Positions 3,298 to 59,288 of a DNA stretch of 64,000 bases are shown piece by piece (position 1 is the stretch's first letter; the number at the start of each line of letters is the position of its first letter). Below the pieces are notes generated by a model that saw only the letters and a list, made by a program, of their open reading frames with translations, was not told where the DNA came from and made no database searches. The position numbers and the translations under genes are program-made. This DNA is from Eledone cirrhosa (taxonomy: Eukaryota): NCBI GenBank assembly GCA_964016885.1, contig OZ024743.1, positions 147,436,001-147,500,000 of the forward strand, in the 5' to 3' direction.

Positions 3298-3381
3298 AGT
3301 ATTTCCGTAGACAAGGTAAAGGAAAGAAGACTGCTGTATGCATTGTACAGAGCTATTTAATTACATAATAAACAACACAAT

Positions 3382-3465
3382 ATAATTATTCCATTACCAA
3401 AGATTTCAAGAAACTGGACGATTCTTACAAAAACGTCCATTTCGTTCATCAGACGAAATAATTAT
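3382..3465 (-). ncRNA. Type I hammerhead ribozyme
   Basis: Reverse strand: ataattatttcgt-CTGATGA-[long stem II gaaatggacg..cgtccagtttc]-GAAA-tc ttt gg-TA-atggaataattat. Stem I is 13 bp (2 G-U); GUA cleavage triplet. Confidence 0.85.
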
Positions 3466-3693
3466 GTTTTGGATATAAATCATTTGAAATAAATCATTTG
3501 GATATAAATCATTTGAAAATGGAAAAGAATGAAACGAAATTTCATTTCTCACTCTTAGTACGGCTGATACCTAAATATAAGTATTTATACGTACATACAT
3601 ATATGTGTACAGACGTACAGTAGTATGTATATATATACATACATGCACACATATATATATATGTACGTATGGGTTTAACGAACATTATTATAA

Positions 3694-3886
3694 TGGTGGT
3701 GACTTGGCAGTATCGGTAGAGTGTTGGACGCTATGCTTTGACGCATTGAGTTACGGCCGTTGCCATTCTGAGTTAAAATCCCGCCGAAGTTAACTTTGCC
3801 TTTCATCCTTACGGGGTCGATAAAATAAAAGTACCAGTAATGTACTGGGTAATTACTGGCTTTGTGCCAATAGTAGAAACAATTAT
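3694..3886 (+). mobile_element. tRNA-derived SINE inserted in the left arm of element A
   Basis: A-box-like TGGCAGTATCGG, B-box-like GAGTTAAAATCC, body ..CATCCTTACGGGGTCGATAAAATAAAAGTACCAG... TSD attattataatg. Absent from the inverted arm (near 4530). Confidence 0.85.
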
Positions 3887-3981
3887 TATAATGTTCGGTT
3901 TGTTTGTAAACAAACAGCCCGAATTACGCCGTACAGTGCTCGGCAACCATCGTCGCCCTTTTGTTCAACACTGACACAGGA

Positions 3982-4024
3982 ACGATGTACTAGTTTCAAG
4001 CTTATTGGCTATCGTCAGCATCGT
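3982..4024 (-). ncRNA. Minimal type I hammerhead ribozyme (family A, left arm)
   Basis: Reverse strand: acgatg-CTGACGA-tagccaataagctt-GAAA-ctag-TA-catcgt. Confidence 0.8.
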
Positions 4025-4399
4025 ATACCATCCTGTCAGATGATTGAACGTTTGAAAGTATATACTTTCCTTATGCATATTAACAGCCTAGCAGCCTAAT
4101 TTGCATAGCGAGTGAGTTAGTCGGCCGGGCGCACCGAAAACGATAAATGGAAAATAATGAAACGAAATTTCATTCTCACTCTTAGTACGTCTGATACCTA
4201 AATATAAGTATTTATACGCACATACATATATGTGTAAAGACGTACAAGAGTATAAATTTGGTTTCATTCTTTTCCATTTATCGTTTTAGGTGCGCCCGGC
4301 CGACTAACTCACTCGAAATGCAAATTATGCTGCTCAGCCGTTAATATGCATAAGGAATATATATACTTTCAAACGTTCAATCATCTGACAGGATGGTAT

Positions 4400-4442
4400 A
4401 CGATGCTGACGATAGCTAATAAGCTTGAAACTAGTACATCGT
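4400..4442 (+). ncRNA. Minimal type I hammerhead ribozyme (family A, right arm)
   Basis: acgatg-CTGACGA-t agct aata agct t-GAAA-ctag-TA-catcgt; 6-bp stem I; palindromic stem III ACTAGT. Confidence 0.85.
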
Positions 4443-4649
4443 TCCTGTGTCAGTGCTGAACAAAAGGGCGACGATGGTTGCCGAGCACTGTACGGCTTAA
4501 TTCGGGCTGTTTGTTTACAAACAAACCGAACATTATAATAAATGTTCGGTAAACCCTTATTTACATATATATATGTGCATGTATGTATATATATATACAT
4601 ACTACTGTACGTATGTGTACATATATGTATGTACGTATACAAACATTAC

Positions 4650-4652
<3 letters not shown>

Positions 4653-4704
<52 letters not shown>

Positions 4705-6435: not shown

Positions 6436-8164
6436 ACGAGTTAATGTGGAGATCAGCGTCCTCCAGAATATGTGTCTCAACCTATGGGTCCCAAATTATG
6501 GGTTGTGGAACTGTTCTATATATTTCGGGAACGCAGAAGTCAATATGCATGAAGGCAAACGATTAACCATTTTTTACAATAAGAAAAAAAAAAAAATCAA
6601 AATAACAAATGGTAAATATTTCCCCAAGAAAAATATCAAATGTTACGTTTAATTGTTTGCTTTATTCAAATATTAAAAAGGCGTCGCAGAGGATAGTTGG
6701 TTTGTCAAAATGGGAGGCGATGGTAAAATATTGAAAACGGTTCCAGTACGCAATGGCTTCTCCTATTACATATAGCCGTCATATCTCCCTAGAAACACAT
6801 CCTGCTGTTGCAAAGCAGGAAATATATATTGGATAACGTGGTTCTAAATATCATCTCTGATTAAAAAAATAAGGATTGGTCAAACCTTTCGTTCAAATAT
6901 AAATTACGTCTAAATAACGAAATCAAATGAACGTCGCTGTTAAGGAACTTCAAGCAACTTAATGTAATAGCTACCCTTTCCAGCAAATTCCCTATTATAG
7001 TTATTACTGAATTAACAGCTCAAGCATGGGTGTTTATATATTCACACACACACACGCACAAACTGACACACACACATACACACGCACGCATATAGGCACA
7101 AACACACACACACACAAACACACTGACACATACACACATACATAGAAAAAAATATATACTGTATGTGTGTGTGTGACACACACCGACAACCACGCATGCA
7201 CACACATACATATCATCAGAGACATATTGTATAATGAACCTTCGATTCGATTTTCAAAATAGGGACCAGTTATGCATATTCGACTGGAAAATTGTTTCAT
7301 TACGAATAGAAATTTGATCGCCCAATTTATTTTGTGCTAAAGTTGAAGATCTTATTTTGGCTTTTGTTGCCGTTGGATTGTTCAAGTGAACTCTGCTCAA
7401 ATTGATCTATGAAAAAAATAGCAACAAATAGATCCTAAATTTCGAAGAAAAAGTGATGCGATCTGCGTTGAGAATACTCATTAAATATAGTTTGAAAATT
7501 TGAATAAGTTTCTATCAAAAGAGAAGTGTGTTATTTTGAGCAGAGATCTTCCCTGGGAAGATAAATTGTTTTTTCAGATAGGACTGGGCAAATAAATTCA
7601 AAAATTCAAAAATACAAGGTATCTCTAGTTTTAAGCGTACTTGCTCAGTGCTATCCGAAACACCGATCTTCTCTGTCTCTCTCACTTAGCCCACCCCTTC
7701 TCTCTCTCTCTCTCTCTCTAAAAGGGTTTAAAGCTAGACATCTCCTAATAGTATGGCAATATATTTAACTCTATACAGTAAAATTCTAATTGCTGGATTT
7801 ATTCTTATTAATGCTGGGTTTGCAGCAGTTGTTATCATAAGATAGTTTTTGTGATTGATGTAGTAAATGTTGCTGGTTGTTGTTGTAATTAGACATCTCA
7901 CTGCGGATGATGATCATTTTTTTCTTGTTATTTTTATTATTGTTCTTGCTGCTGCAGTTATAACTCTTCTTCTTGTTCTTGTTATAGTTCAGCTTACTCT
8001 TCAATTTTCAGCAAGTAAGCTGTCATAGGACCTTTGCAGCAAATATTTCTCAACGATGACAAGATGATGAAGATGGAGGAGGAGACGGCAATGAAATACA
8101 TAAGACAAATCTTTAAAATTTACATACATACATACGTATATATATATATAAATAAATACACGCG

Positions 8165-11042: not shown

Positions 11043-11193
11043 GTATATATATATGTATGTATGTATATATATATATATTAATAAGAGGAATTCCAACTTT
11101 GTCTGATTTACTCGTTTTATTTACAATCCTTTAAAATTTATAATGGTATTATAATGAAATAGTATGATAGAATATTAAATTCTAAGTGTTAAT

Positions 11194-11232
11194 TGAACAA
11201 GTACTTTCATGCTTTCGCAATCTTCAGGTTCA
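11194..11232 (-). ncRNA. Minimal type I hammerhead ribozyme (family B, left arm)
   Basis: Reverse complement of 11289-11327. Confidence 0.8.
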
Positions 11233-11288
11233 TAATATGTGGTGACAGTCAAGTTTAAAATTGTAAACTTGACTGTCACCACATATTA

Positions 11289-11327
11289 TGAACCTGAAGA
11301 TTGCGAAAGCATGAAAGTACTTGTTCA
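11289..11327 (+). ncRNA. Minimal type I hammerhead ribozyme (family B, right arm)
   Basis: tgaac-CTGAAGA-t tgc gaaa gca t-GAAA-gtac-TT-gttca; GNRA-capped stem II; palindromic stem III AGTACT. Confidence 0.8.
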
Positions 11328-11486
11328 ATTAACACTTAGAATTTAATATTCTATCATACTATTTCATTATAATACCATTATAAATTTTAAAGGATTGTAA
11401 ATAAAACGAGTAAATCAGACAAAGTTGGAATTCCTCTTATTAATATAATCTTCTATACACAATCATACAGACCCGTGTATATTTAC

Positions 11487-11572
<86 letters not shown>

Positions 11573-11997: not shown

Positions 11998-12393
11998 ATA
12001 TAATATAATATAAGATCAAAAGATGGTTAAAAGAGTTCCAAGTATTTTATTATGCGCATTTCAAAAACAAATATCATCATGGGATGATATCTGAGTTCTC
12101 ATCAGATAAAATAGGGATACATGATATGAAGCTTAAAAAATACTTGTGAATAATGAAGTTTTAAATCAACATAAGTTTTAAATCAACATAAGTTTTAAAT
12201 CAACATAAGTTTTAAATCAACATAAGTTTTAAATCAACATTTGTTTTGGAAATGCGCATAATAAAATACTTGGAACTCTTTTAAACATCTTTTGATCTTA
12301 AATTATTTATACTCCAGTCCCACAAATTGTAGAGTGGTACTTATCCGATATTTGCATTGCTGTATTTTGCTACAATAAAACTCACCTCCTACA
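11998..12393. mobile_element. HHR-bearing fold-back element, family C
   Basis: 12009-12071 is inverted at 12240-12300. Five copies of a 17-mer sit at the junction. The 3' end acAATAAAactcacctcctaca(TA)n also occurs at 59134-59288. Confidence 0.75.
12043..12113 (-). ncRNA. Type I hammerhead ribozyme (family C)
   Basis: Reverse strand: tattttat-CTGATGA-gaactcagatatcatc ccat gatgatatttgttttt-GAAA-tgcgca-TA-ataaaata; 8-bp stem I. Confidence 0.85.
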
Positions 12394-12423: not shown

Positions 12424-13118
12424 TACTAACATATATACACAGATGCATACCTATGCCAGCAAATATATAGGTTTTGTCTTAGTAACTTTGTGGTTCAATG
12501 CATGGGGATGCAGAACAATAATATGAAAGACGTAAAATAAGAAAATTATAAAAATTAACTTACTTACTAAAATTTCACTCCAACTAATTAGTTTCTGAAA
12601 GGGAATAAACATGGTTTCCGAAGAAACGCACGGAGAAGACCTTTCGTCATCGGGGAAGTCTATTCTCAGCTAAGTTTCCAGGCAATGCGTGGATACAGGG
12701 AACTTATACAAAAATAATTCAGTGGATGGAAAAAAGCAAAGCGTGGACTAAGTTCCAAGACCTTGAAAAAATCACTGCCTACTCGGTCGGTGGCAAATTC
12801 AAAAGAATCAATCATGTGACATCGACGTTAATCAGTGAGGAGTGGTTTGTTAAGAAGACAGCAGCCGAACCATTACTATGAACTATAGTAGCAGTTTTGG
12901 CAAATTTTGGCTCAACAAAATAATTTGGAGATAATTATAAAGAATTAGTATATCTACTAACATATATATACAGATGCATACCTATGCCAGCACATATATA
13001 GGTTTTGTCTTAGTAACTGTGTGGTTCAATGCATGGGGATGCAGAACAATAATATGAAAGACGTAAATTTTAGTAAGTAAGTTAATTTTTATAATTTTCT
13101 TATTTTACGTCTTTCATA
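12424..13118. mobile_element. HHR fold-back element, family D, diverged subfamily (~531 bp unit plus partial repeat plus short inversion)
   Basis: 12424-12538 is repeated at 12955-13068, and 13064-13118 is inverted. Homologous to 34938-36400. Confidence 0.75.
12577..12659 (-). ncRNA. Hammerhead ribozyme, probably inactivated (CCGATGA core), family D
   Basis: Reverse strand: acttcc-CCGATGA-c gaaagg...cctttc a-GAAA-ctaattag-TT-ggagt. Confidence 0.65.
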
Positions 13119-14870: not shown

Positions 14871-15283
14871 CCAACCCCCTTGAATAATAATAAAATGACC
14901 GCCCAAGTTGTAACAATGCAACCCTTCTACGCATTAGGGAGCATAGAGACTGGTAATGCCTGATGGCTGTCAGAACGTCAATAATAGCATCCAACGACTT
15001 ACCTCACATTTACTGGAAGATGAAGATAAAGATGATTATATGCTAATATGTTTATGCATATTATATCACATGATAATTCTCCCCCTCAAAACATTTTCAC
15101 TGGTAGCGGTCAGTTCTGGAAATTGTCCTTTCATTGAGGGCGTCTCTTGACAAGCCGATATCCTCACAACCCGAGGCCCGAGTGCATTTTAGTTGCACTT
15201 TCGCTGTATACCAACTGTGCAGTCGGGACTTCGAAGAAAAATTATGTATATTTTTGTGTATTTGCTCTTCACACTTATAATTG

Positions 15284-15353
<70 letters not shown>

Positions 15354-15422
15354 TATGAAGAGAGAAGAAACATTTAGATATAATTAGTAATAAAATGTAT
15401 CATACCTAAACTGCTCCTAGAT

Positions 15423-15512
15423 TCCTCGACTACGTAGTTTCGTGGCATAAACAAAAACAATACATCATAAAGATATAGAGTCCTTGCGAGGTCTGCCGAC
15501 TTATCAAGAGGA
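15423..15512 (-). ncRNA. Hammerhead ribozyme, U3-A8 core variant (family E, left arm)
   Basis: Reverse complement of 16114-16203. Confidence 0.75.
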
Positions 15513-16113
15513 TACCTCATTTTACTAGTCTCAAGAACGCGTCTACACGACGTGAGAAAGAATCCCAAAAGGCGGAGGGGGAGATAGTCACGCGATATAA
15601 CGGTCGAGAAACAGAACTAAGCCTCTTATAACCCCGAAGAAAATACCACGAAGGCGGAGGGGGTATTTATATCGAAGCCGTAGAAGAGGTGGTGAAGGGG
15701 GCGAGAAGTATGAGTAATGGAAGCTTTCCAGCAGTCCCCACACTTCAAAGATTGCTCGAGCAGAGGGAGTTATTAACAATATATTTAGAAACACACAGAT
15801 ACATGCGGACACACACATATACATGAATGCATCCGCACCCAACCGTGAGTTAAGGGTGCCAACTTCACCGATGTTGCTCAATGAATGACTGGGACAGACC
15901 AATCCGGTTGAACTAGACTGAACCAGTATCAGAGTTAAAAATACATTATGAAAAGAGAAGAAACATTTAGATATAATTAGTAATAAAATGTATCATACCT
16001 AAACTGCTCCTAGATTCCTCGACTACGTAGTTTCGTGACTATCTCCCCCTCCGCCTTTTGGGATTCTTTCTCACGTCGTCTAGACGCGTTCTTGAGACTA
16101 GTAAAATGAGGTA

Positions 16114-16203
16114 TCCTCTTGATAAGTCGGCAGACCTCGCAAGGACTCTATATCTTTATGATGTATTGTTTTTGTTTATGCCACGAAACTACGTAGTCGA
16201 GGA
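16114..16203 (+). ncRNA. Hammerhead ribozyme, U3-A8 core variant (family E)
   Basis: tcctc-TTGATAA-gt(c)ggca...tgccac-GAAA-ctacgtag-TC-gagga; GUC site; palindromic stem III. Confidence 0.75.
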
Positions 16204-16706
16204 ATCTAGGAGCAGTTTAGGTATGATACATTTTATTACTAATTATATCTAAATTTTTGTTCTCTCTTCATAATGTATTTTTAACTCTGATACTGGTTCA
16301 GTCTAGTTCAACCGGATTGGTCTGTCCCAGTCATTCATTGAGCAACATCGGTGAAGTTGGCACCCTTAACTCACGGTTGGGTGCGGATGCATTCATGTAT
16401 ATGTGTGTGTCCGCATGTATCTGTGTGTTTCTAAATATATTGTTAATAACTCCCTCTGCTCGAGCAATCTTTGAAGTGTGGGGACTGCTGGAAAGCTTCC
16501 ATTACTCATACTTCTCTCCTCCTTCACCACTTCTTCTACGGCTTCGATATAAATACCCCCTCCGCCTTCGTGGTATTTTCGTCGGGGTTATAAGAGGCTT
16601 AGCTCTGTTTCTCGACCGTTATATCGCGTGACTATCTCCCCCTCCGCCTTTTGGGATTCTTTCTCACGTCGTGTAGACGCGTTCTTGAGACTAGTAAAAT
16701 GAGGTA

Positions 16707-16789
16707 TCCTCTTGATAAGACCTCGCAAGGACTCTATATCTTTATGATGTATTGTTTTTGTTTATGCCACGAAACTACGTAGTCGAGGA
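16707..16789 (+). ncRNA. Family E hammerhead copy with a 7-nt deletion in stem II
   Basis: TTGATAAgacctc versus TTGATAAgtcggcagacctc in the other copies. Confidence 0.55.
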
Positions 16790-17020
16790 ATCTAGGAGCA
16801 GTTTAGGTATGATACATTTTATTACTAATTATATCTAAATGTTTCTTCTCTCTTCATAATGTATTTTTAACTCTGATACTGGTTCAGTCTAGTTCAATCG
16901 GATTGGTCTGTCCCAGTCATTCATTGAGCAACATCGGTGAAGTTGGCACCCTTAACTCACGGTTGGGTGCGGATGCATTCATGTATATGTGTGTGTCCGC
17001 ATGTATCTGTGTGTTTCTAA

Positions 17021-17097
<77 letters not shown>

Positions 17098-17099
<2 letters not shown>

Positions 17100-17420
17100 G
17101 ATATTAAACAAATGGAAACTATATTTATAAAACCATATTTATTTCATTATACATATTTCGGGGATACCATATTAAAAATATGGCATGCCTTCTACAGATA
17201 AATACAATATATAAACAGTTCTATAAATAATTTTGACGTACCATAAATATTGACCAACCGTTATGTAAGAAGCTGGTTTGGTAGTATAATGAAATAAATA
17301 TGGTTTTATAAATATAGTTTCCATTTGTTTAATATCGTATATCTACTCCAAAACTTGTCGAGTGCTTTATATCAGTTATAAAATATTTACTTGTCACCCA
17401 ACAATTTTATATAAAACTTT

Positions 17421-17423
<3 letters not shown>
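17098..17423. mobile_element. Degenerate pLTR-like fold-back with a damaged HHR (17143-17204, minus)
   Basis: 17098-17152 is inverted at 17284-17340. Reverse strand: atttat-CTGTAGA-..stem II..-GAAA-tatgta-TA-atgaa. Flanked by (TA)n. Confidence 0.6.
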
Positions 17424-17486
<63 letters not shown>

Positions 17487-17631
17487 ACCAAATGTTAAAC
17501 AAGATTCATTGATTATTCAATGAATGTAGTTTTACAATAGATTAAAAGCACTCAACAAAGAAGTTTTCTGGAGTTATTAATATTATTCAAAATATTAATA
17601 AATGGAGACATTCACGTAATCAAAATATATG

Positions 17632-17693
17632 TTTTATTATATATATTTCGGAGGTACTGTGCTGTTTCTTCAGTACGTCCTCATCAGATAAAA
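17632..17693 (-). ncRNA. Type I hammerhead ribozyme in the inverted pLTR
   Basis: Reverse-complement copy of 19710-19771. Confidence 0.8.
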
Positions 17694-18066
17694 TACATAA
17701 ATTGATGTATGACATACCTCAACTGTGCTGATAGTTCAATTCCAATCTTGGCAGTGTTTTATTACAATAAAACTCAATATTTATATACCACAAGTAATAA
17801 CATGACAAACTAAATCTGATGGAGAGGGATATGTAGCGAAAGCTTTCTTACTCAACAACCATGAATGTGGCTCAAAATATTGCAAAAATTAATAACGGTA
17901 TTATTAATTCAAACCAACATATAATTAGCGATAATATCAATAATAATAATAATAATACAATAGTTATTGAGAATAACAATAACAATAATTTAAACACATA
18001 TTGTAGAACACCTACAAATATTAACAATGATAGTATGAACAGTTTAGATTATAGAAATAGCATGAA

Positions 18067-18500
18067 TTGAACTGTAACTGTAGAAGGAAATCTGAATGCC
18101 ATTTACAAAATAACTGCCTTGATAAGAATTTAGTATATAAATGTACCATTAAAACAGATAATAATATTACTTATAACTACATAGGTGCAACTTCATCGAA
18201 CTTTAAACTTTGCTTTTCCAATCATAAACATTCATTTTCTAATCCAGATAAAAAAAATTTTCTACTTCATTATCACAATTAATATGGTCTTTAAAAGAGA
18301 AAAGTATGAAATACTCAATTTCTTGGATTAAACTTAGAAACTCTGAATCGTATCGGAACGATTCCATTTCACCAAACTGCAATCTTTGCAATTTAGAGAT
18401 TAATAATTGCTAATTATGGTAATTCTTTTAATAAAAAAAGTGAGTTATTTTCAAATTGCCTCCATAAATCTGCAAAAACATTTCAAGCATCATATAAATT
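18067..18500 (+). pseudogene. Penelope-type GIY-YIG endonuclease remnant
   Basis: CNCRRKSECHLQNNCL..LVYKC..YIGATSSNFK..NHKHSF. After a frameshift it continues with LIWSLKEK..YSISW..CNLCNLE. Confidence 0.8.
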
Positions 18501-19709
18501 TAGGAAAAAACCATTGACTGAGTGAGAAAAGATATTGACTTTTATTAATAATTCTTGTTATTATTAGTATTATGTAAAATGTTTTACCTCACCTTAGGAA
18601 ATGCATATCGTTTCTTTTATATAGTAAGTTATTTCTTGATTGACTAAATACGTTTAGTTTGGTTTTAGAATCATCTTTTTATGACTTGAATTTTCTAAAT
18701 TTGAGGTCTGAAATACCTTCAGGCTTTCAAACCTTTTAGTTAATTTAAATGTTTAGATATGTTGTACGGAGCTCATTTGTTTACATTTATCGTGTATAAT
18801 TTTCGTTTTATCCAAATTGATTAATAATCTGTATTTAACTTGATCTATATTATTGAATACAGTAAGATTTGGTTGAATCGAAATAATAATACTTTCAAGA
18901 GTAAATATAACTAATAATTAATCCTATATGTAATTGACAACTATTGATTTAAATAGTATTGTTTATAATATTTATAATTCTAAACATTATATAAAATGCA
19001 TATACAGATGTTGATATGCAATTAAGTTATGATAAATACTCTCATACTTATTTACTATATTTGTAAACATCATTGGTACTTAATAATGTTTCTGAATTTG
19101 AATTTTGTAACTAAATATTGAATATATTTATTAATTTATCATTGATCATCATTGAAACTATTTTATATTGTTTAATTTTGATATAATATAATAGTATAAT
19201 TTTCTCAAATATAACCAAATACAATAGATTAAAAATTTCACGATATTTAATTGATCGCTTCTACCTAACTTAATATTTGATAAAAAAACAAACGGCCACG
19301 CATCATGTCCCTTTCTTCTTTCTTTCTTCTTTATCTCTTTTCCTTATGCAGTTATATATTCTTATATCTCTATCTCCCTCCTTTTTATCTTCATCTTTTT
19401 CTCTTTTTCTCTTTTCTCTTCTATTTAGCACTCTCTCTCTTTTGTCTTTTTCTCTAACACGGATATTTACATATTTAAATATTTAATATTTATGTACTTA
19501 TGTGTTTATTTTTTTTGTTTATTCTATACTTTCTCCTACTCGCCCCCTCCTAATACTTATATCTCGCTACATATCCCTCTCCATCATATTTAGTTTGTCA
19601 TGTTATTACTTGTGGTATATAAATATTAAGTTTTGTTGTAATAAATCACTGCCAAGACTGGAATTGAACCATCAGAACAGTTGAGGTATGTCATACATCA
19701 ATTTATGTA

Positions 19710-19771
19710 TTTTATCTGATGAGGACGTACTGAAAAAACAGCACAGTACCTCCGAAATATATATAATAAAA
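19710..19771 (+). ncRNA. Type I hammerhead ribozyme in the PLE 3' pLTR
   Basis: ttttat-CTGATGA-gga c gtactg..cagtac c tcc-GAAA-tatata-TA-ataaaa. Confidence 0.85.
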
Positions 19772-20199
19772 CATATATTTTGATTACGTGAATGTCTCCA
19801 TTTATTAATATTTTGAATAATATTATATATATATATATAAGTATCCACATACAACTATCTATTTATGAAATTTATTCAGACATACACAAAATATGCTGAT
19901 ATAAAGAGCATTGTGTGCATGTAGGTACATAATCTTATATGCATAGAAGAATCAAATTGTGTTCTTCCGTAAAAAGTAATAATTGTTATTGTATGTGCCT
20001 TACAATTATGTCGATTGTGGTCTTACATATTGAGAATACTCTAGAGGTTTTAGTTTTTCAAAGGTCCTCAGTGGAAATTCATTTTCAGGGCTCATATTTG
20101 ATAATTTATAAGAGATAACTAAGAATATCTAATCGATCCGCGGGTTCGAATGGTCGCTCGTTTGTTCCAACTACCCTTCAACGGATAAGGAATAGAGAG

Positions 20200-25977: not shown

Positions 25978-26038
<61 letters not shown>

Positions 26039-26099
26039 TATGTTTTGAAACAGTGAGCAAGTTTGAAATTAGAAAATAGAATAGCTTTCACCGTATTTT

Positions 26100-26240
26100 T
26101 TTTACTAAATAAATTTTAGCCTGATAGTGGGGTTTAGAACACTCAGAGAAGTGGAAAAAGATGAGTATTGACGTACTCATCTTTTTCCATTTCTCTGAGG
26201 GTTCTAAACCCCACTATCAGGCTAAAATTTATTTAGTAAA
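26100..26240. repeat. ~140 bp hairpin/palindrome
   Basis: About 68-bp arms with 2 mismatches and a 6-nt loop (26168-26173), between TA tracts. Confidence 0.85.
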
Positions 26241-26268
26241 AGAAAAAAAAATATATATATATATATAT

Positions 26269-26789
26269 GGTAAATTTCTTTAAGTAGTTTGGAAGCCTCG
26301 ACAATGCAAATGAGTAAATCTCCGGGTAACAAGATCCGGTGGTGGAGAGAGAGAGATGTAAGTGGGTGTATGTTGAGATGCGTAGCGTGTATAAGACGTG
26401 TAGAGGAATGAAGGAAAGAGCATAAAGGATAAAATAAAATAACAACACGAGAGAGAGTTACCTTGGGAGAGATTTAATTGTCCCTATAAATTTCGGATTT
26501 ACATCCATCAACTGGGGATTTTTTTCCGGGGTGGGGGAAAGGTTGTCTGTCGGAAAGGTGCGAAACGCGTCCTCCGCTGTTCGTTGTTTTGAATATCTTA
26601 GGTATTCAGCAGAGCGGGCGTGCGCGTGAAATGGGGTCGGTCGGGCATAGGTCAGCGGCCGAAGTAGTTCTTTCAATTGTGGGAGTGAGGTGGCGCTATT
26701 ACCCATTTGCATTGTCGAGGCTTCCAAACGACTTAAAGAAATTTACCTTATTATTCCACAATGCTTCAAGCAAACTTCAATACTCTCAT
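26269..26789. mobile_element. GC-rich fold-back-type element between (TA)n tracts, possibly PLE pLTR-derived
   Basis: 26269-26318 is inverted at 26699-26747. Contains GAAACGCGTC (26562-26571), the 3' half of a PLE-type HHR core. Confidence 0.5.
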
Positions 26790-29089: not shown

Positions 29090-29145
29090 ACTGCTTGATG
29101 AGGTCATAGCCATTCAATGGCTATCATCGAAATATATATAGCAGT
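29090..29145 (+). ncRNA. Hammerhead ribozyme with a C3U change (family G), in a pLTR-like fragment ~28840-29190
   Basis: actgc-TTGATGA-ggtc atagcca ttcaa tggctat catc-GAAA-tatata-TA-gcagt; homologous to 55364-55418. Confidence 0.65.
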
Positions 29146-29186
29146 AAATAAAGGATTATGAGTTCATGCAATTGACTTATGTTTCG

Positions 29187-29252
<66 letters not shown>

Positions 29253-34939: not shown

Positions 34940-35128
34940 GATAATTTAATATATCAACTAACATAAGCGCACAGATGCACGCCCATGCCAGCAAATACAC
35001 AGGTTATGTCATAGTACCTAGGTGGTTCAATGCAGGAGAATGCAGAACAATAATATAAAGGACGTAAAATAAAAAAATATTTTTTTAAAAAAAAATTTAA
35101 AAAAAATTTTTTTCTTACTTAAATTTTC

Positions 35129-35210
35129 ACTCCAACTAATTAGTTTCTGCAATGGGATAAAGACAGTTACGTAATTCAACTGTCGAGAATTCATTGCGTC
35201 ATCAGGAAGT
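35129..35210 (-). ncRNA. Type I hammerhead ribozyme (family D, unit 1)
   Basis: Reverse complement of 36247-36328. Confidence 0.8.
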
Positions 35211-35688
35211 CTATTCTCAGTTAAGTCTCCAGGCAATGCGCGGACACTGGCGGCTCATATAAAAATAATAATAATTCGGTAGATCGAACAGCTTGCGAGG
35301 ACTGAATTCTATGTACCGAAATTCTCACTGCTTCAAGTCAAATGGCCGATTCTAAAGAATCAATCACGTGACACAGAGGCTAGTTAGAAGGAATGGGATG
35401 GTAAGATGACTGACGCCTACTAACACCCCAAAAAAAAATTTTTTTTAGAAGTGGTTTTGACAAGTTTGCTCGACAAATCAGTGATTTGGAGATAAATATA
35501 GATAATTTAATATATCAACTAACATAAGCGCACAGATGCACGCCCATGCCAGCAAATACACAGGTTATGTCATAGTACCTAGGTGGTTCAATGCAGGAGA
35601 ATGCAGAACAATAATATAAAGGACGTAAAATAAAAAAATATTTTTTTAAAAAAAATTAAAAAAAAATTTTTTTCTTACTTAAATTTTC

Positions 35689-35770
35689 ACTCCAACTAAT
35701 TAGTTTCTGCAATGGGATAAAGACAGTTACGTAATTCAACTGTCGAGAATTCATTGCGTCATCAGGAAGT
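35689..35770 (-). ncRNA. Type I hammerhead ribozyme (family D, unit 2)
   Basis: Identical copy exactly 560 bp from 35129-35210. Confidence 0.8.
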
Positions 35771-36246
35771 CTATTCTCAGTTTTTAAAATTTTTTTTAAA
35801 TTTTTTTTAAAAAAATATTTTTTTATTTTACGTCCTTTATATTATTGTTCTGCATTCTCCTGCATTGAACCACCTAGGTACTATGACATAACCTGTGTAT
35901 TTGCTGGCATGGGCGTGCATCTGTGCGCTTATGTTAGTTGATATATTAAATTATCTATATTTATCTCCAAATCACTGATTTGTCGAGCAAACTTGTCAAA
36001 ACCACTTCTAAAAAAAATTTTTTTTTTGGGGTGTTAGTAGGCGTCAGTCATCTTACCATCCCATTCCTTCTAACTAGCCTCTGTGTCACGTGATTGATTC
36101 TTTAGAATCGGCCATTTGACTTGAAGCAGTGAGAATTTCGGTACATAGAATTCAGTCCTCGCAAGCTGTTCGATCTACCGAATTATTATTATTTTTATAT
36201 GAGCCGCCAGTGTCCGCGCATTGCCTGGAGACTTAACTGAGAATAG

Positions 36247-36328
36247 ACTTCCTGATGACGCAATGAATTCTCGACAGTTGAATTACGTAACTGTCTTTAT
36301 CCCATTGCAGAAACTAATTAGTTGGAGT
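36247..36328 (+). ncRNA. Type I hammerhead ribozyme (family D, right arm)
   Basis: acttc-CTGATGA-c gcaatg..[branched insert]..cattgc a-GAAA-ctaattag-TT-ggagt. Confidence 0.82.
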
Positions 36329-36395
36329 GAAAATTTAAGTAAGAAAAAAATTTTTTTTAAATTTTTTTTAAAAAAATATTTTTTTATTTTACGTC

Positions 36396-36505
<110 letters not shown>

Positions 36506-52308: not shown

Positions 52309-53547
52309 ATTATAACATAAATGGTGCGGTGGATTGGCAGTATCGGTAGAGGGTCGGACGCTATGCTTTCACGCATAGAGTTACGCCCCTTTGCAGTCTG
52401 AGTTCAAATCTCGCCGAGGTTAACTTTGCCTTACATCCTTACGGGGCCGATAAAATAATGTACCAGTAATGCACTCGGATAAATTGCTGGCCTTGTGCCA
52501 AAAGTAGAAACAATTATAACATAAATGGTGCGGTGGATTGGCAGTATCGGTAGAGGGTCGGACGCCATGCTTTCACGCATAGAGTTACGCGCCTTCGCAG
52601 TCTGGGTTCAAATCTCGCCGAGGTTAACTTTGCCTTACATCCTTACGGGGCCGATAAAATAATGTACCAGTAATGCACTCGGATAAATTGCTGGCCTTGT
52701 GCCAAAAGTAGAAACAATTATAACATAAATGGTGCGGTGGATTGGCAGTATCGGTAGAGGGTCGGACGCTATGCTTTCACGCATAGAGTTACGCCCCTTT
52801 GCAGTCTGAGTTCAAATCTCGCCGAGGTTAACTTTGCCTTACATCCTTACGGGGCCGATAAAATAATGTACCAGTAATGCACTCGGATAAATTGCTGGCC
52901 TTGTGCCAAAAGTAGAAACAATTATAACATAAATGGTGCGGTGGATTGGCAGTATCGGTAGAGGGTCGGACGTCATGCTTTCACGCATAGAGTTACGCGC
53001 CTTTGCAGTCTGAGTTCAAATCTCGCCGAGGTTAACTTTGCCTTACATCCTTACGGGGCCGATAAAATAATGTACCAGTAATGCACTCGGATAAATTGCT
53101 GGCCTTGTGCCAAAAGTAGAAACAATTATAACATAAATGGTGCGGTGGATTGGCAGTATCGGTAGAGGGTCGGACGCCATGCTTTCACGCATAGAGTTAC
53201 GCGCCTTCGCAGTCTGGGTTCAAATCTCGCCGAGGTTAACTTTGCCTTACATCCTTACGGGGCCGATAAAATAATGTACCAGTAATGCACTCGGATAAAT
53301 TGCTGGCCTTGTGCCAAAAGTAGAAACAATTATAACATAAATGGTGCGGTGGATTGGCAGTATCGGTAGAGGGTCGGACGTCATGCTTTCACGCATAGAG
53401 TTACGCGCCTTTGCAGTCTGGGTTCAAATCTCGCCGAGGTTAACTTTGCCTTACATCCTTACGGGGCCGATAAAATAATGTACCAGTAATGCACTCGGAT
53501 AAATTGCTGGCCTTGTGCCCAAAGTAGAAACAATTATAACATAAATG
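52309..53547 (+). repeat. Tandem array of six full-length SINEs (204 bp period)
   Basis: Unit starts at 52323, 52527, 52731, 52935, 53139 and 53343. The 15-mer attataacataaatg occurs seven times. Confidence 0.95.
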
Positions 53548-55306: not shown

Positions 55307-55363
55307 AATTTTGAGTATATGTTGGTTGTATACCAACACCTTGTCTATACCACACTAATTTGG

Positions 55364-55418
55364 ACTGCCTGAAGAGGTCACAGCCAAAGATGGCTGTCAC
55401 TGAAATATATATAGCAGT
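55364..55418 (+). ncRNA. Type I hammerhead ribozyme (family G)
   Basis: actgc-CTGAAGA-ggtc acagcca aaga tggctgt cact-GAAA-tatata-TA-gcagt, then AATAAA and (TA)n. Confidence 0.85.
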
Positions 55419-55463
55419 AATAAACGAAGTTAAATTTGAAACATTTAACTTTTTATTTAACTT

Positions 55464-55508
<45 letters not shown>

Positions 55509-58616: not shown

Positions 58617-58643
58617 TATATATATATATATATATAATATATT

Positions 58644-58978
58644 AAGGAAAACTATGAAATGTCGTTTACATGTAATGAGTATTTTATTGTTTATGAACTT
58701 ATGCGCGCTTGACAGAGAATTGGCTGACATTTACCCATAGAATTTATGACAAGACTCCATTATCGATCTGCTCATTCCACAAAAGATTCAAAAGTTGAAC
58801 ATCCGTCAAACACTGCATTTTTGTCGAATCAATAGTCAGACGAGTAGCTCGATAAAGGAGTCATGTCCCTAATTTATATGAGGAACCTAGGGCCAATTCT
58901 CTGCGAAACGCACGTGACAGGTAAATACACATAAAAATAAAAGTCACTAGATTTAAACGAAACTTCATAGTTTTCTTT
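58644..58978. mobile_element. MITE-like element with long imperfect TIRs
   Basis: aaggaaaactatgaaatgtcgtttaca.. versus ..tttaaacgaaacttcatagttttcttt; inner pair gagaattggc/gccaattctc. Confidence 0.6.
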
Positions 58979-59049
58979 CATATATACACTCATCCTGTGC
59001 ATCGAGTACTTCATTTGTTACCACCACCAGGAATTCACTGATTCACAAA

Positions 59050-59133
<84 letters not shown>

Positions 59134-59141
<8 letters not shown>

Positions 59142-59283
59142 ATATAAGATCAAAAGAGTTCCATGTATTTTAACCATCTTTTGATCTTATATATTATTAT
59201 TTATACTCCAGTCCTACAAACTGTAGAGTGCTACTTATCCGATATCTGCATTGCTTTATTGTACTACAATAAAACTCACCTCC

Positions 59284-59288
<5 letters not shown>
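59134..59288 (+). mobile_element. Family C 3'-end fragment with a short 5' inversion
   Basis: Matches 12283-12393. ataatatataagatcaaaaga is inverted at the left end. (TA)n on both flanks. Confidence 0.7.

Follow-up and report, generated by a model that had tools for sequence, protein, structure and literature searches.

A tailed fold-back of a 593-bp hammerhead-bearing unit inside a (TA)n microsatellite, probably a non-autonomous PLE insertion

Introduction

Which enzyme mobilises animal retrozymes, and how the tandem, inverted and tailed insertions of PLEs originate, are questions called open in passages of PMC7229834, PMC7761336, PMC8557442 and 10.64898/2026.07.22.740005, and the published link between retrozymes and PLEs consists, in the passages that treat it, of co-occurrence and pLTR similarity. 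In the window, by which we mean the whole stretch of 64,000 nucleotides that was analysed, a sequence with a repeat period of 593 bp occurs as an inverted head-to-head pair inside (TA)n. What is this unit, and how did its two unequal arms come to be copied and joined?

Results

Anatomy of the fold-back element

The element and its flanks are made up as follows.

15285 to 15350: left (TA)n tract, the target microsatellite (TRF, 33 copies)
15351 to 16037, minus strand: left arm, 1.16 units, 687 nt, running from unit position 149 to 593 and on from 1 to 245
16034 to 16037: head-to-head junction with the 4-nt microhomology CGTG, exactly 4 nt being common to the arms
16034 to 16626, plus strand: first, complete 593-bp unit of the right arm, from the period and the unit alignment
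16279 to 16441, plus strand: "tail" segment, unit 246 to 408, between the fixed 3' end sites, its limits matching contig loose ends
16627 to 17027, plus strand: second, partial unit of the right arm, unit 1 to 408, with a 7-nt deletion at 16717
17028 to 17098: right (TA)n tract (TRF)

The arms meet 5' end to 5' end, and their 3' ends point outward into (TA)n. The right arm as a whole (16034-17027, plus strand) runs through unit 1-593 and then 1-408, which makes 1.69 units if the 7-nt deletion is counted, and the left arm is wholly nested within it. Identity between arm pairs is 97.3-99.2%, with about six private changes in the first right-arm unit besides the 7-nt deletion in the second. The left arm ends at a site 77 nt beyond the predicted ribozyme cut (the "short" site) and the right arm at one 242 nt beyond it (the "long" site). 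The earlier note had put the fold-back at about 1.15 units on the minus and 1.7 on the plus strand, which the measured 1.16 and 1.69 bear out; its placing of the CGTG junction at 16034-16037 inside stem II of the left-arm ribozyme was confirmed by alignment and motif scan, and in the left-arm reading the four letters belong to the 3' strand of that stem. Opposite-strand joins of the unit that share at least 4 nt make up 1.5% of all those possible, and the 4-nt overlap is mildly unusual for one junction. Both flanks are (TA)n, a microsatellite target preference, and a TSD is unreadable in such a tract. The element combines a partial tandem with an adjacent inverted, 5'-truncated copy, the structure by which an EN+ PLE-type insertion is recognised.

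The 593-nt unit and its hammerhead

Each arm carries one intact type I hammerhead motif, supported by motif scan and constrained fold.

15422 to 15513, minus strand: intact type I hammerhead motif of the left arm, predicted cut after 15428
16113 to 16204, plus strand: intact type I hammerhead motif of the right arm, predicted cut after 16198

In our custom scan the motif has a 5-bp stem I, U3-A8 replacing C3-G8, a stem II span of 59 nt and a palindromic stem III, for which the predicted pairing as a dimer is -12.9 kcal/mol. U3-A8 is a known natural covariation (PMC3088659), and hammerheads of this kind occur in Schistosoma PLEs (PMC4209133). A third copy is disabled by the 7-nt deletion, which takes out the 5' strand of stem II, and a fourth is truncated by the junction; two consecutive complete ribozymes, the "active" copy of Li et al., are absent here, which is a property of the window copy and not of the family. 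Against the predicted ribozyme, the catalytic fold lies about 1.1 kcal/mol above the unconstrained MFE, and the MFE fold is not catalytic. Rfam gave no match at the gathering threshold over the entire window, and its 14 sub-threshold matches in 15200-20000 were microsatellite- or hairpin-driven and included no hammerhead. This silence is uninformative, because the canonical hammerhead in the neighbouring element E (described below) was missed too.

The unit has a GC content of 42%. Folded as a circle, it reaches -170.5 vs -137.3 ± 5.7 in 30 shuffles (z -5.8), the predicted structure being concentrated in roughly 300 nt downstream of the cut. The tail segment is predicted to form three hairpins (MFE -56.5 vs -38.8 ± 4.1 in shuffles, z -4.4). 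Unpaired probability averages 0.58 and 0.72 at the two end sites, as compared with 0.12-0.50 at the six other TA-like sites checked. Stop-to-stop frames of more than 100 codons are only 134 codons long and none has a credible Pfam match (best E 0.6); common variants of the unit hold 1-3-nt indels that would shift the frame, and no RT or GIY-YIG endonuclease ORF, the mark of an autonomous PLE, was found in 15351-17027. The unit is non-coding, as non-LTR retrozymes are, and it shares with them the head-to-tail repeat, a GC content below 50% and the lack of an LTR. The unit holds two copies of a 13-nt GC-box-like word (16044-16056 and 16558-16570), one of them directly after a TATA-like word; a possible reading is an internal promoter. 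A bacterial promoter scan stayed at chance level and is not relevant to this element.

Other copies in public sequencing runs

Element words were found in 20 of the 24 public runs listed, which bear 17 organism labels and none of which is recorded as RNA. The contigs of four runs (X1, X4, X5 and X6) were aligned on 15960-16700. In X1, 1328 contigs match the unit with all 30 bins covered, many variants and several different flanks, a figure that is not a copy number and that describes X1, not the window's own assembly. The family is multicopy and dispersed in X1, rather than single-copy, the finding that the earlier note had named as fatal to its reading.

Among the 16 loose ends listed of 92, (AT)n ends lay only behind 16278, which is unit 245 (four X1 contigs), and behind 16440, which is unit 407 (three X1 contigs and one X4 contig); no loose ends at the six other TA-like words of the unit were among these 16. 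The outer ends are two fixed sites 162 nt apart (unit 245 and 407/408) that are used again by other copies. The long ends of X1 and X4 join (AT)n one base before the window copy does, and thus probably belong to other loci. Of the earlier description of both ends as merging into (TA)n at TA-like positions, the location in (TA)n stands, whereas the opportunistic use of such positions does not, since two fixed sites recur in other copies.

A joint that steps back 593 nt was found in three of the four runs (X4, X5 and X6). Like the predicted circular fold, this joint is compatible with a circular RNA, but it cannot discriminate a circle from a tandem, because a tandem yields the identical joint. 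X5 holds a 621-nt self-overlapping contig that comprises the entire unit plus the overlap at a depth of 7.8, and one X1 contig joins at least 255 nt of other sequence ahead of 16606. No strand-change joint was listed, and no contig bridged 16034-16037 among the 26 of 1382 pieces shown. At all 14 population-variable sites checked, every window copy that covers the site holds the same letter, and two of these shared letters have a frequency of about 0.1% or less in X1. The agreement suggests a single template haplotype for both arms; the argument from allele frequencies is weakened in that X1 may come from a different individual or species.

A single variant set, a minority of 35-45% in X1, is common to X4, X5 and X6, which carry three organism labels; contamination, a related species or an expressed master variant could account for it. 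An exact-pattern scan of metagenomes gave no match and a later one a single match (L001), which was rejected as a relative, being a chance 20-mer in an unrelated coding sequence without a BLAST match to the window. The exact-pattern scan of viral contigs and the phage BLAST gave no match.

Fold-backs across the window

Masked self-BLAST of the window returned 30 local inverted rows, 20 of which belong to 11 elements; the remaining 10 comprise a SINE pair, six that are trinucleotide rows, and three that lie at 8072, 47385 and 58637. In 10 of the 11 fold-backs, which sit at microsatellites, one arm has a tail and the other has none, and the tail-less arm enters the microsatellite within 0-5 nt of the end of arm similarity. 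Besides the 593 element, the 11 include the following.

3517-4680, 11078-11489, 12003-12393, 17099-17423, 26037-26250, 26269-26787 and 59137-59286: small fold-backs at microsatellites
12424-13115: fold-back C, an older relative of family D, 531-bp period, about 72% identical
34940-36398: fold-back of family D, 561-bp unit, hammerhead with an extra base on each side of stem II, 118-nt tail
17482-19823, plus strand: element E, a decayed, 5'-truncated Hydra-type PLE with inverted 260-bp pLTRs, canonical hammerheads and (TA)n at both ends
18061-18465, plus strand: broken GIY-YIG endonuclease remnant of E, with a CxCX5C linker and later CxxC and CxH

The tails measure 40 nt in K, 46 in B, 59 in G, 86 in F and in H, 89 in F', 98 in E, about 100 in C, 118 in D and, by unit position, 162 in the 593 element. 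Six of the seven small fold-backs have a one-sided tail of 40-89 nt; the exception is A, the eleventh fold-back, whose left end is obscured by a SINE that seems to have a target duplication. The distance from cut to short end is 77 nt in the 593 element, 75 in D, 58 in E and 48 in F. The arms are nested in the 593 element, D, C, B and G. Those of E, H and F each contain sequence missing from the partner arm, so that neither can be a simple copy of the other; K and F' could not be placed in either group. Junction overlaps of the neighbours are mixed (3 nt in C, at least 1 in B, none in D), and in A an overlap of about 7 nt adjoins a deletion.

A shared insertion mechanism across families, as proposed in the earlier note, is well supported, the anatomy being common to 10 of the 11 fold-backs including the decayed Hydra-type PLE. 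To call the families independent was too strong in view of the in-phase alignment of the 593 unit with family D, given below. The ten fold-backs do not stand for ten independent families, with F/F' and D/C forming pairs and the tails of E, H and F alike. The shared mechanism is the known PLE one and not a new one.

Several further features of the window were noted on the way. A word ending in CTCC, noticed post hoc, lies within about 15 nt 3' of an end site in five families; it follows the short site in E (17579), H (17338) and F (12307) and the long site in the 593 element (16442) and D. Five perfect 17-bp repeats at the junction of fold-back F (12156-12240) perhaps reflect end-joining slippage. 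Further solitary hammerhead-bearing ends lie beside microsatellites at 55340-55468, 29090-29233 and 3345-3445, one of them having a CUGAAGA core. A tRNA-like SINE that is scattered over the window also forms a tandem array of six 204-bp copies, 98% alike, at 52309-53547; by resemblance of the SINE sequences the host may be a cephalopod. An old imperfect palindrome with 67% identity occupies 58637-58985.

The neighbouring Hydra-type PLE

Element E lies 450 bp from the 593 element, is alike in fold-back anatomy and has its 98-nt tail on one side. Its broken endonuclease is preceded by an Asn-rich stretch, and the CxCX5C, CxxC and CxH motifs are those that define the Hydra clade, whose members carry hammerheads, target (TA)n and occur in hosts that include molluscs (PMC8557442 section 11). 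A full HMMER search with the endonuclease fragment gave 1306 relatives; the CxCX5C motif was present in 137 of the 150 homologues listed, and two long homologues have RT-like motifs upstream, as judged by eye. Among 12 relatives scanned, the Pfam GIY-YIG cut-off was passed by one (the best match), two more matched weakly and nine did not match at all. An atlas look-alike of the fragment is named GIY-YIG, with the Pfam family in 12% of its members. A word-based protein search with the fragment found nothing, and Pfam did not recognise the fragment.

Between the 593 unit and the pLTR and interior of E, we found no similarity above shuffles (27 vs 22.1 ± 2.5, null maximum 30), a comparison with the Hydra pLTR that is confined to E, the one remnant in the window. 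No autonomous element with 593-unit sequence was found in this comparison with E.

Relation to family D

The earlier note had called the 593 element unrelated to family D. Under strict scoring this stands, since local alignment gives 23 vs a null of 22.5 ± 2.8 (D vs C as a control: 401); under lenient in-phase alignment it does not, since the global alignment phased at the cut scores 72 vs at most 33 in controls, which comprised 230 natural windows (all 230 beaten), all rotations tested, the reverse and the reverse complement. The phased score exceeds 197-200 of 200 local shuffles, depending on scoring. With the ribozyme removed, the 593-D score is reached by 15 of 200 composition-preserving shuffles in global and 53 of 200 in local alignment, and the older relative C gives weaker signals than D throughout. 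The two units share a colinear layout (size, long stem II, similar stem III and cut-to-end distance), and both tails end in a purine-pyrimidine hairpin. Judged from such alignments, common ancestry of 593 and D outside the ribozyme is possible, and convergence would account for the shared layout as well.

Discussion

Proposed mechanism

We read the element, with fair confidence, as one young insertion of a multicopy, non-coding 593-nt hammerhead unit, probably a non-autonomous PLE (non-LTR retrozyme), that was probably copied by a borrowed PLE enzyme from both strands of cut (TA)n. The parts of this reading differ in strength: we are highly confident that the family is non-coding and PLE-mobilised and fairly confident that double priming rather than snap-back joined the arms, a Hydra-clade partner enzyme is somewhat favoured, and a circular template has a slight edge. 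From the anatomy, the fixed ends, the multicopy status, the shared alleles and the neighbouring Hydra-type remnant we infer the following course for the enzymatic steps, the circle and the partner. The unit RNA would be transcribed, would cleave itself and would probably be circularised, and a PLE RT-endonuclease, most plausibly of the Hydra clade, would nick both (TA)n strands. The two 3'-OH ends would then prime at different places on one RNA haplotype, the first at the short site (245) and the second at the long site (408), perhaps aided by TA-like pairing over 3-6 nt where the RNA is predicted to be unpaired. Both cDNAs would exceed one unit and run through the ribozyme cut site without a scar, the template being a circle or an uncut multimer. 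Finally, the 4-nt overlap would let the 3' ends of the two nascent cDNAs anneal, each then priming the second strand of the other, and the expected outcome would be a head-to-head fold-back in which a single arm is tailed.

Published work agrees with much of this. A partial tandem, an inverted 5'-truncated copy and a one-sided tail form the PLE pattern (PMC8557442; PMC3846280), and researchers have found that purified Poseidon PLE cleaves AT-rich DNA and extends both strands, starting at two internal RNA sites that delimit the tail, the main one 85-92 nt past the hammerhead cut (PMC11167929). Copying beyond unit length from a circle has also been proposed before (PMC4209133; PMC7761336). Nevertheless, some observations speak against our reading. 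The ends of the 593 element show 1-6 nt of TA-like overlap, unlike the start sites of Frangieh et al., which have no homology to the cut DNA (PMC11167929), and the 162-nt tail is four to five times the published 30-40 nt. On a tandem unit the tail can also be read the other way round (430 nt). Moreover, junction overlaps vary among the neighbours, no contig among those listed bridges the 593 junction, and the comparison with E brought up no autonomous element with this sequence.

A bolder version is put forward tentatively, and we would not rate its chances as high as even: a Hydra-type PLE dimer may prime the short and long sites of a single circular retrozyme RNA, both cDNAs may roll past unit length, and their ends may anneal, so that priming would be double and coordinated, while 593 and 561 (D) would be diverged sister circles that keep only the layout read by the enzyme. 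Coordinated double priming, if true, would identify the enzyme that moves animal retrozymes, and one rule (always one short and one long end) would explain the inverted and tail structures of PLEs.

Alternative explanations

The arms could instead have arisen by snap-back, in which a PLE-primed cDNA (the right arm) folds at the 4-nt overlap, copies itself into the left arm and is then cut or joined at the short site. We regard this as unlikely, if still worth serious attention. The left arm does lie fully inside the right arm, and the nested arms taken alone are compatible with snap-back too; self-priming is favoured for PLE inverted junctions by Arkhipova et al. (PMC3846280), and Craig et al. 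attribute the tail to endonuclease resolution (PMC8557442). The rare letters at unit 426 and 535, common to both arms, fit snap-back or double priming. However, the right-arm private changes (47, 222, 226, the 7-nt deletion, 484, 498 and 548; those at 484, 498 and 548 being private by comparison with the run contigs) are all absent from the left arm, so that under snap-back every one of them must postdate the insertion; moreover, the pairing would be merely 4 bp over a 144-nt loop, and the arms of the neighbours E, H and F are not nested. The reverse, with the left arm as template, fails because that arm is too short to give the right one. L1-type twin priming on one linear RNA was rejected, as the arms overlap rather than abut.

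The nature of the template could also be read differently, with the unit as the pLTR/3'-UTR end of a long autonomous PLE in partial tandem, or copied only from uncut multimers of a genomic tandem, with no circular RNA and no self-standing retrozyme; this we hold to be improbable. PLEs do make partial tandems and are heavily 5'-truncated (PMC8557442), hammerhead cleavage is dispensable for Poseidon insertion in vitro (PMC11167929), and the X1 contig with at least 255 nt of other sequence before 16606 would suit an autonomous element. Yet each arm passes from the end of one unit into the start of the next and contains no ORF sequence, the 593-nt wrap joint recurs in X4, X5 and X6 with a 621-nt X5 contig holding the whole unit plus overlap, and the frames of more than 100 codons lack a credible Pfam match while common variants carry 1-3-nt indels. 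The multimer version stays compatible with the joint, since it is the same for circle and tandem. That two independent insertions of opposite orientation in one TA tract were later fused by microhomology-mediated deletion seems very improbable: (TA)n tracts are insertion hotspots with stacked elements (17099-17423 adjoins 17482-19823) and a 4-nt microhomology is typical of end joining, but the alleles are identical in both arms at 14 of 14 variable sites and the head-to-head short/long pattern occurs in 10 of 11 elements. Least credible of all, to the point of being nearly negligible, is a fold-back chimera made by assembly or library preparation. The junction is indeed absent from the contigs listed, and PLE inverted structures are known to trouble assemblies (PMC8557442); against this, the arms differ by 1-2%, are asymmetric and have different unique flanks, they end where copies in other runs also end, and many unrelated window families show the same ordered pattern.

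Significance

The fold-back and tail architecture, retrozymes, the proposed PLE link and the U3-A8 core are all in print. In full-text literature searches we found no description of retrozyme-type units as tailed fold-backs or of tails this long, although the supplements of PMC8557442 and 10.64898/2026.07.22.740005 may list such elements. Word searches of the main text of PMC7229834, PMC7761336, PMC11722881 and 10.64898/2026.07.22.740005 brought up no retrozyme-type tailed fold-back; in the searched text, "inverted" is absent from PMC7229834, and the preprint 10.64898/2026.07.22.740005 has no "tail" and has "inverted" only in a reference title. To the published link the 593 element adds anatomical evidence, namely a retrozyme-type unit that bears the full PLE insertion signature. 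As a small, young, very abundant and ORF-free unit with two mapped start sites, it would be convenient for a genome-wide census and an in vitro PLE assay.

Comparison with known systems

Animal non-LTR retrozymes (PMC7229834; 10.64898/2026.07.22.740005) carry a single type I hammerhead with a palindromic stem III in each non-coding tandem unit, as does the 593 unit, which resembles them also in its GC content of 42%, its self-paired predicted circle, its multicopy status and its co-occurrence with a PLE. Its length of 593 nt exceeds the 170-400 nt and 150-450 bp of PMC7229834 and lies inside the 51-972 of 10.64898/2026.07.22.740005. Unlike these retrozymes, it has a U3-A8 core, a 59-nt stem II region and a fold-back form with two fixed ends in (TA)n. 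The same core covariation is found in the hammerheads of Schistosoma Cercyon PLEs (PMC4209133; PMC3088659), from which the 593 unit differs in its 3-bp stem III with a palindromic tetraloop, its long stem II and its tandem non-coding unit; opposite-strand hammerhead pairs 100-700 bp apart were noted earlier (PMC4209133).

EN+ PLE insertions (PMC8557442; PMC3846280; PMC2377424) have, as here, a microsatellite target, a one-sided tail and a hammerhead just upstream of the end. The 593 element differs from them in having no ORF, in that both arms exceed one unit, and in a tail of 162 nt vs 30-40 nt; the tails of the neighbouring window families are 40-118 nt long. The Hydra clade (PMC8557442 section 11) likewise has a (TA)n target and hammerheads, and its hosts are aquatic invertebrates; the comparison with E gave no sequence link to the 593 unit, and a partnership is putative. 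With Poseidon PAc (PMC11167929), which cuts and extends both AT-rich strands, the element has in common two start sites at a similar distance past the hammerhead cut; Poseidon PAc starts in an AC-rich stem loop, whereas the proposed starts on the non-coding 593 RNA are 162 nt apart and fall where the sequence is U/A-rich and predicted to be unpaired. The element is real and well explained as a non-autonomous PLE/retrozyme with PLE insertion marks and an unusually long tail, and not as a new class.
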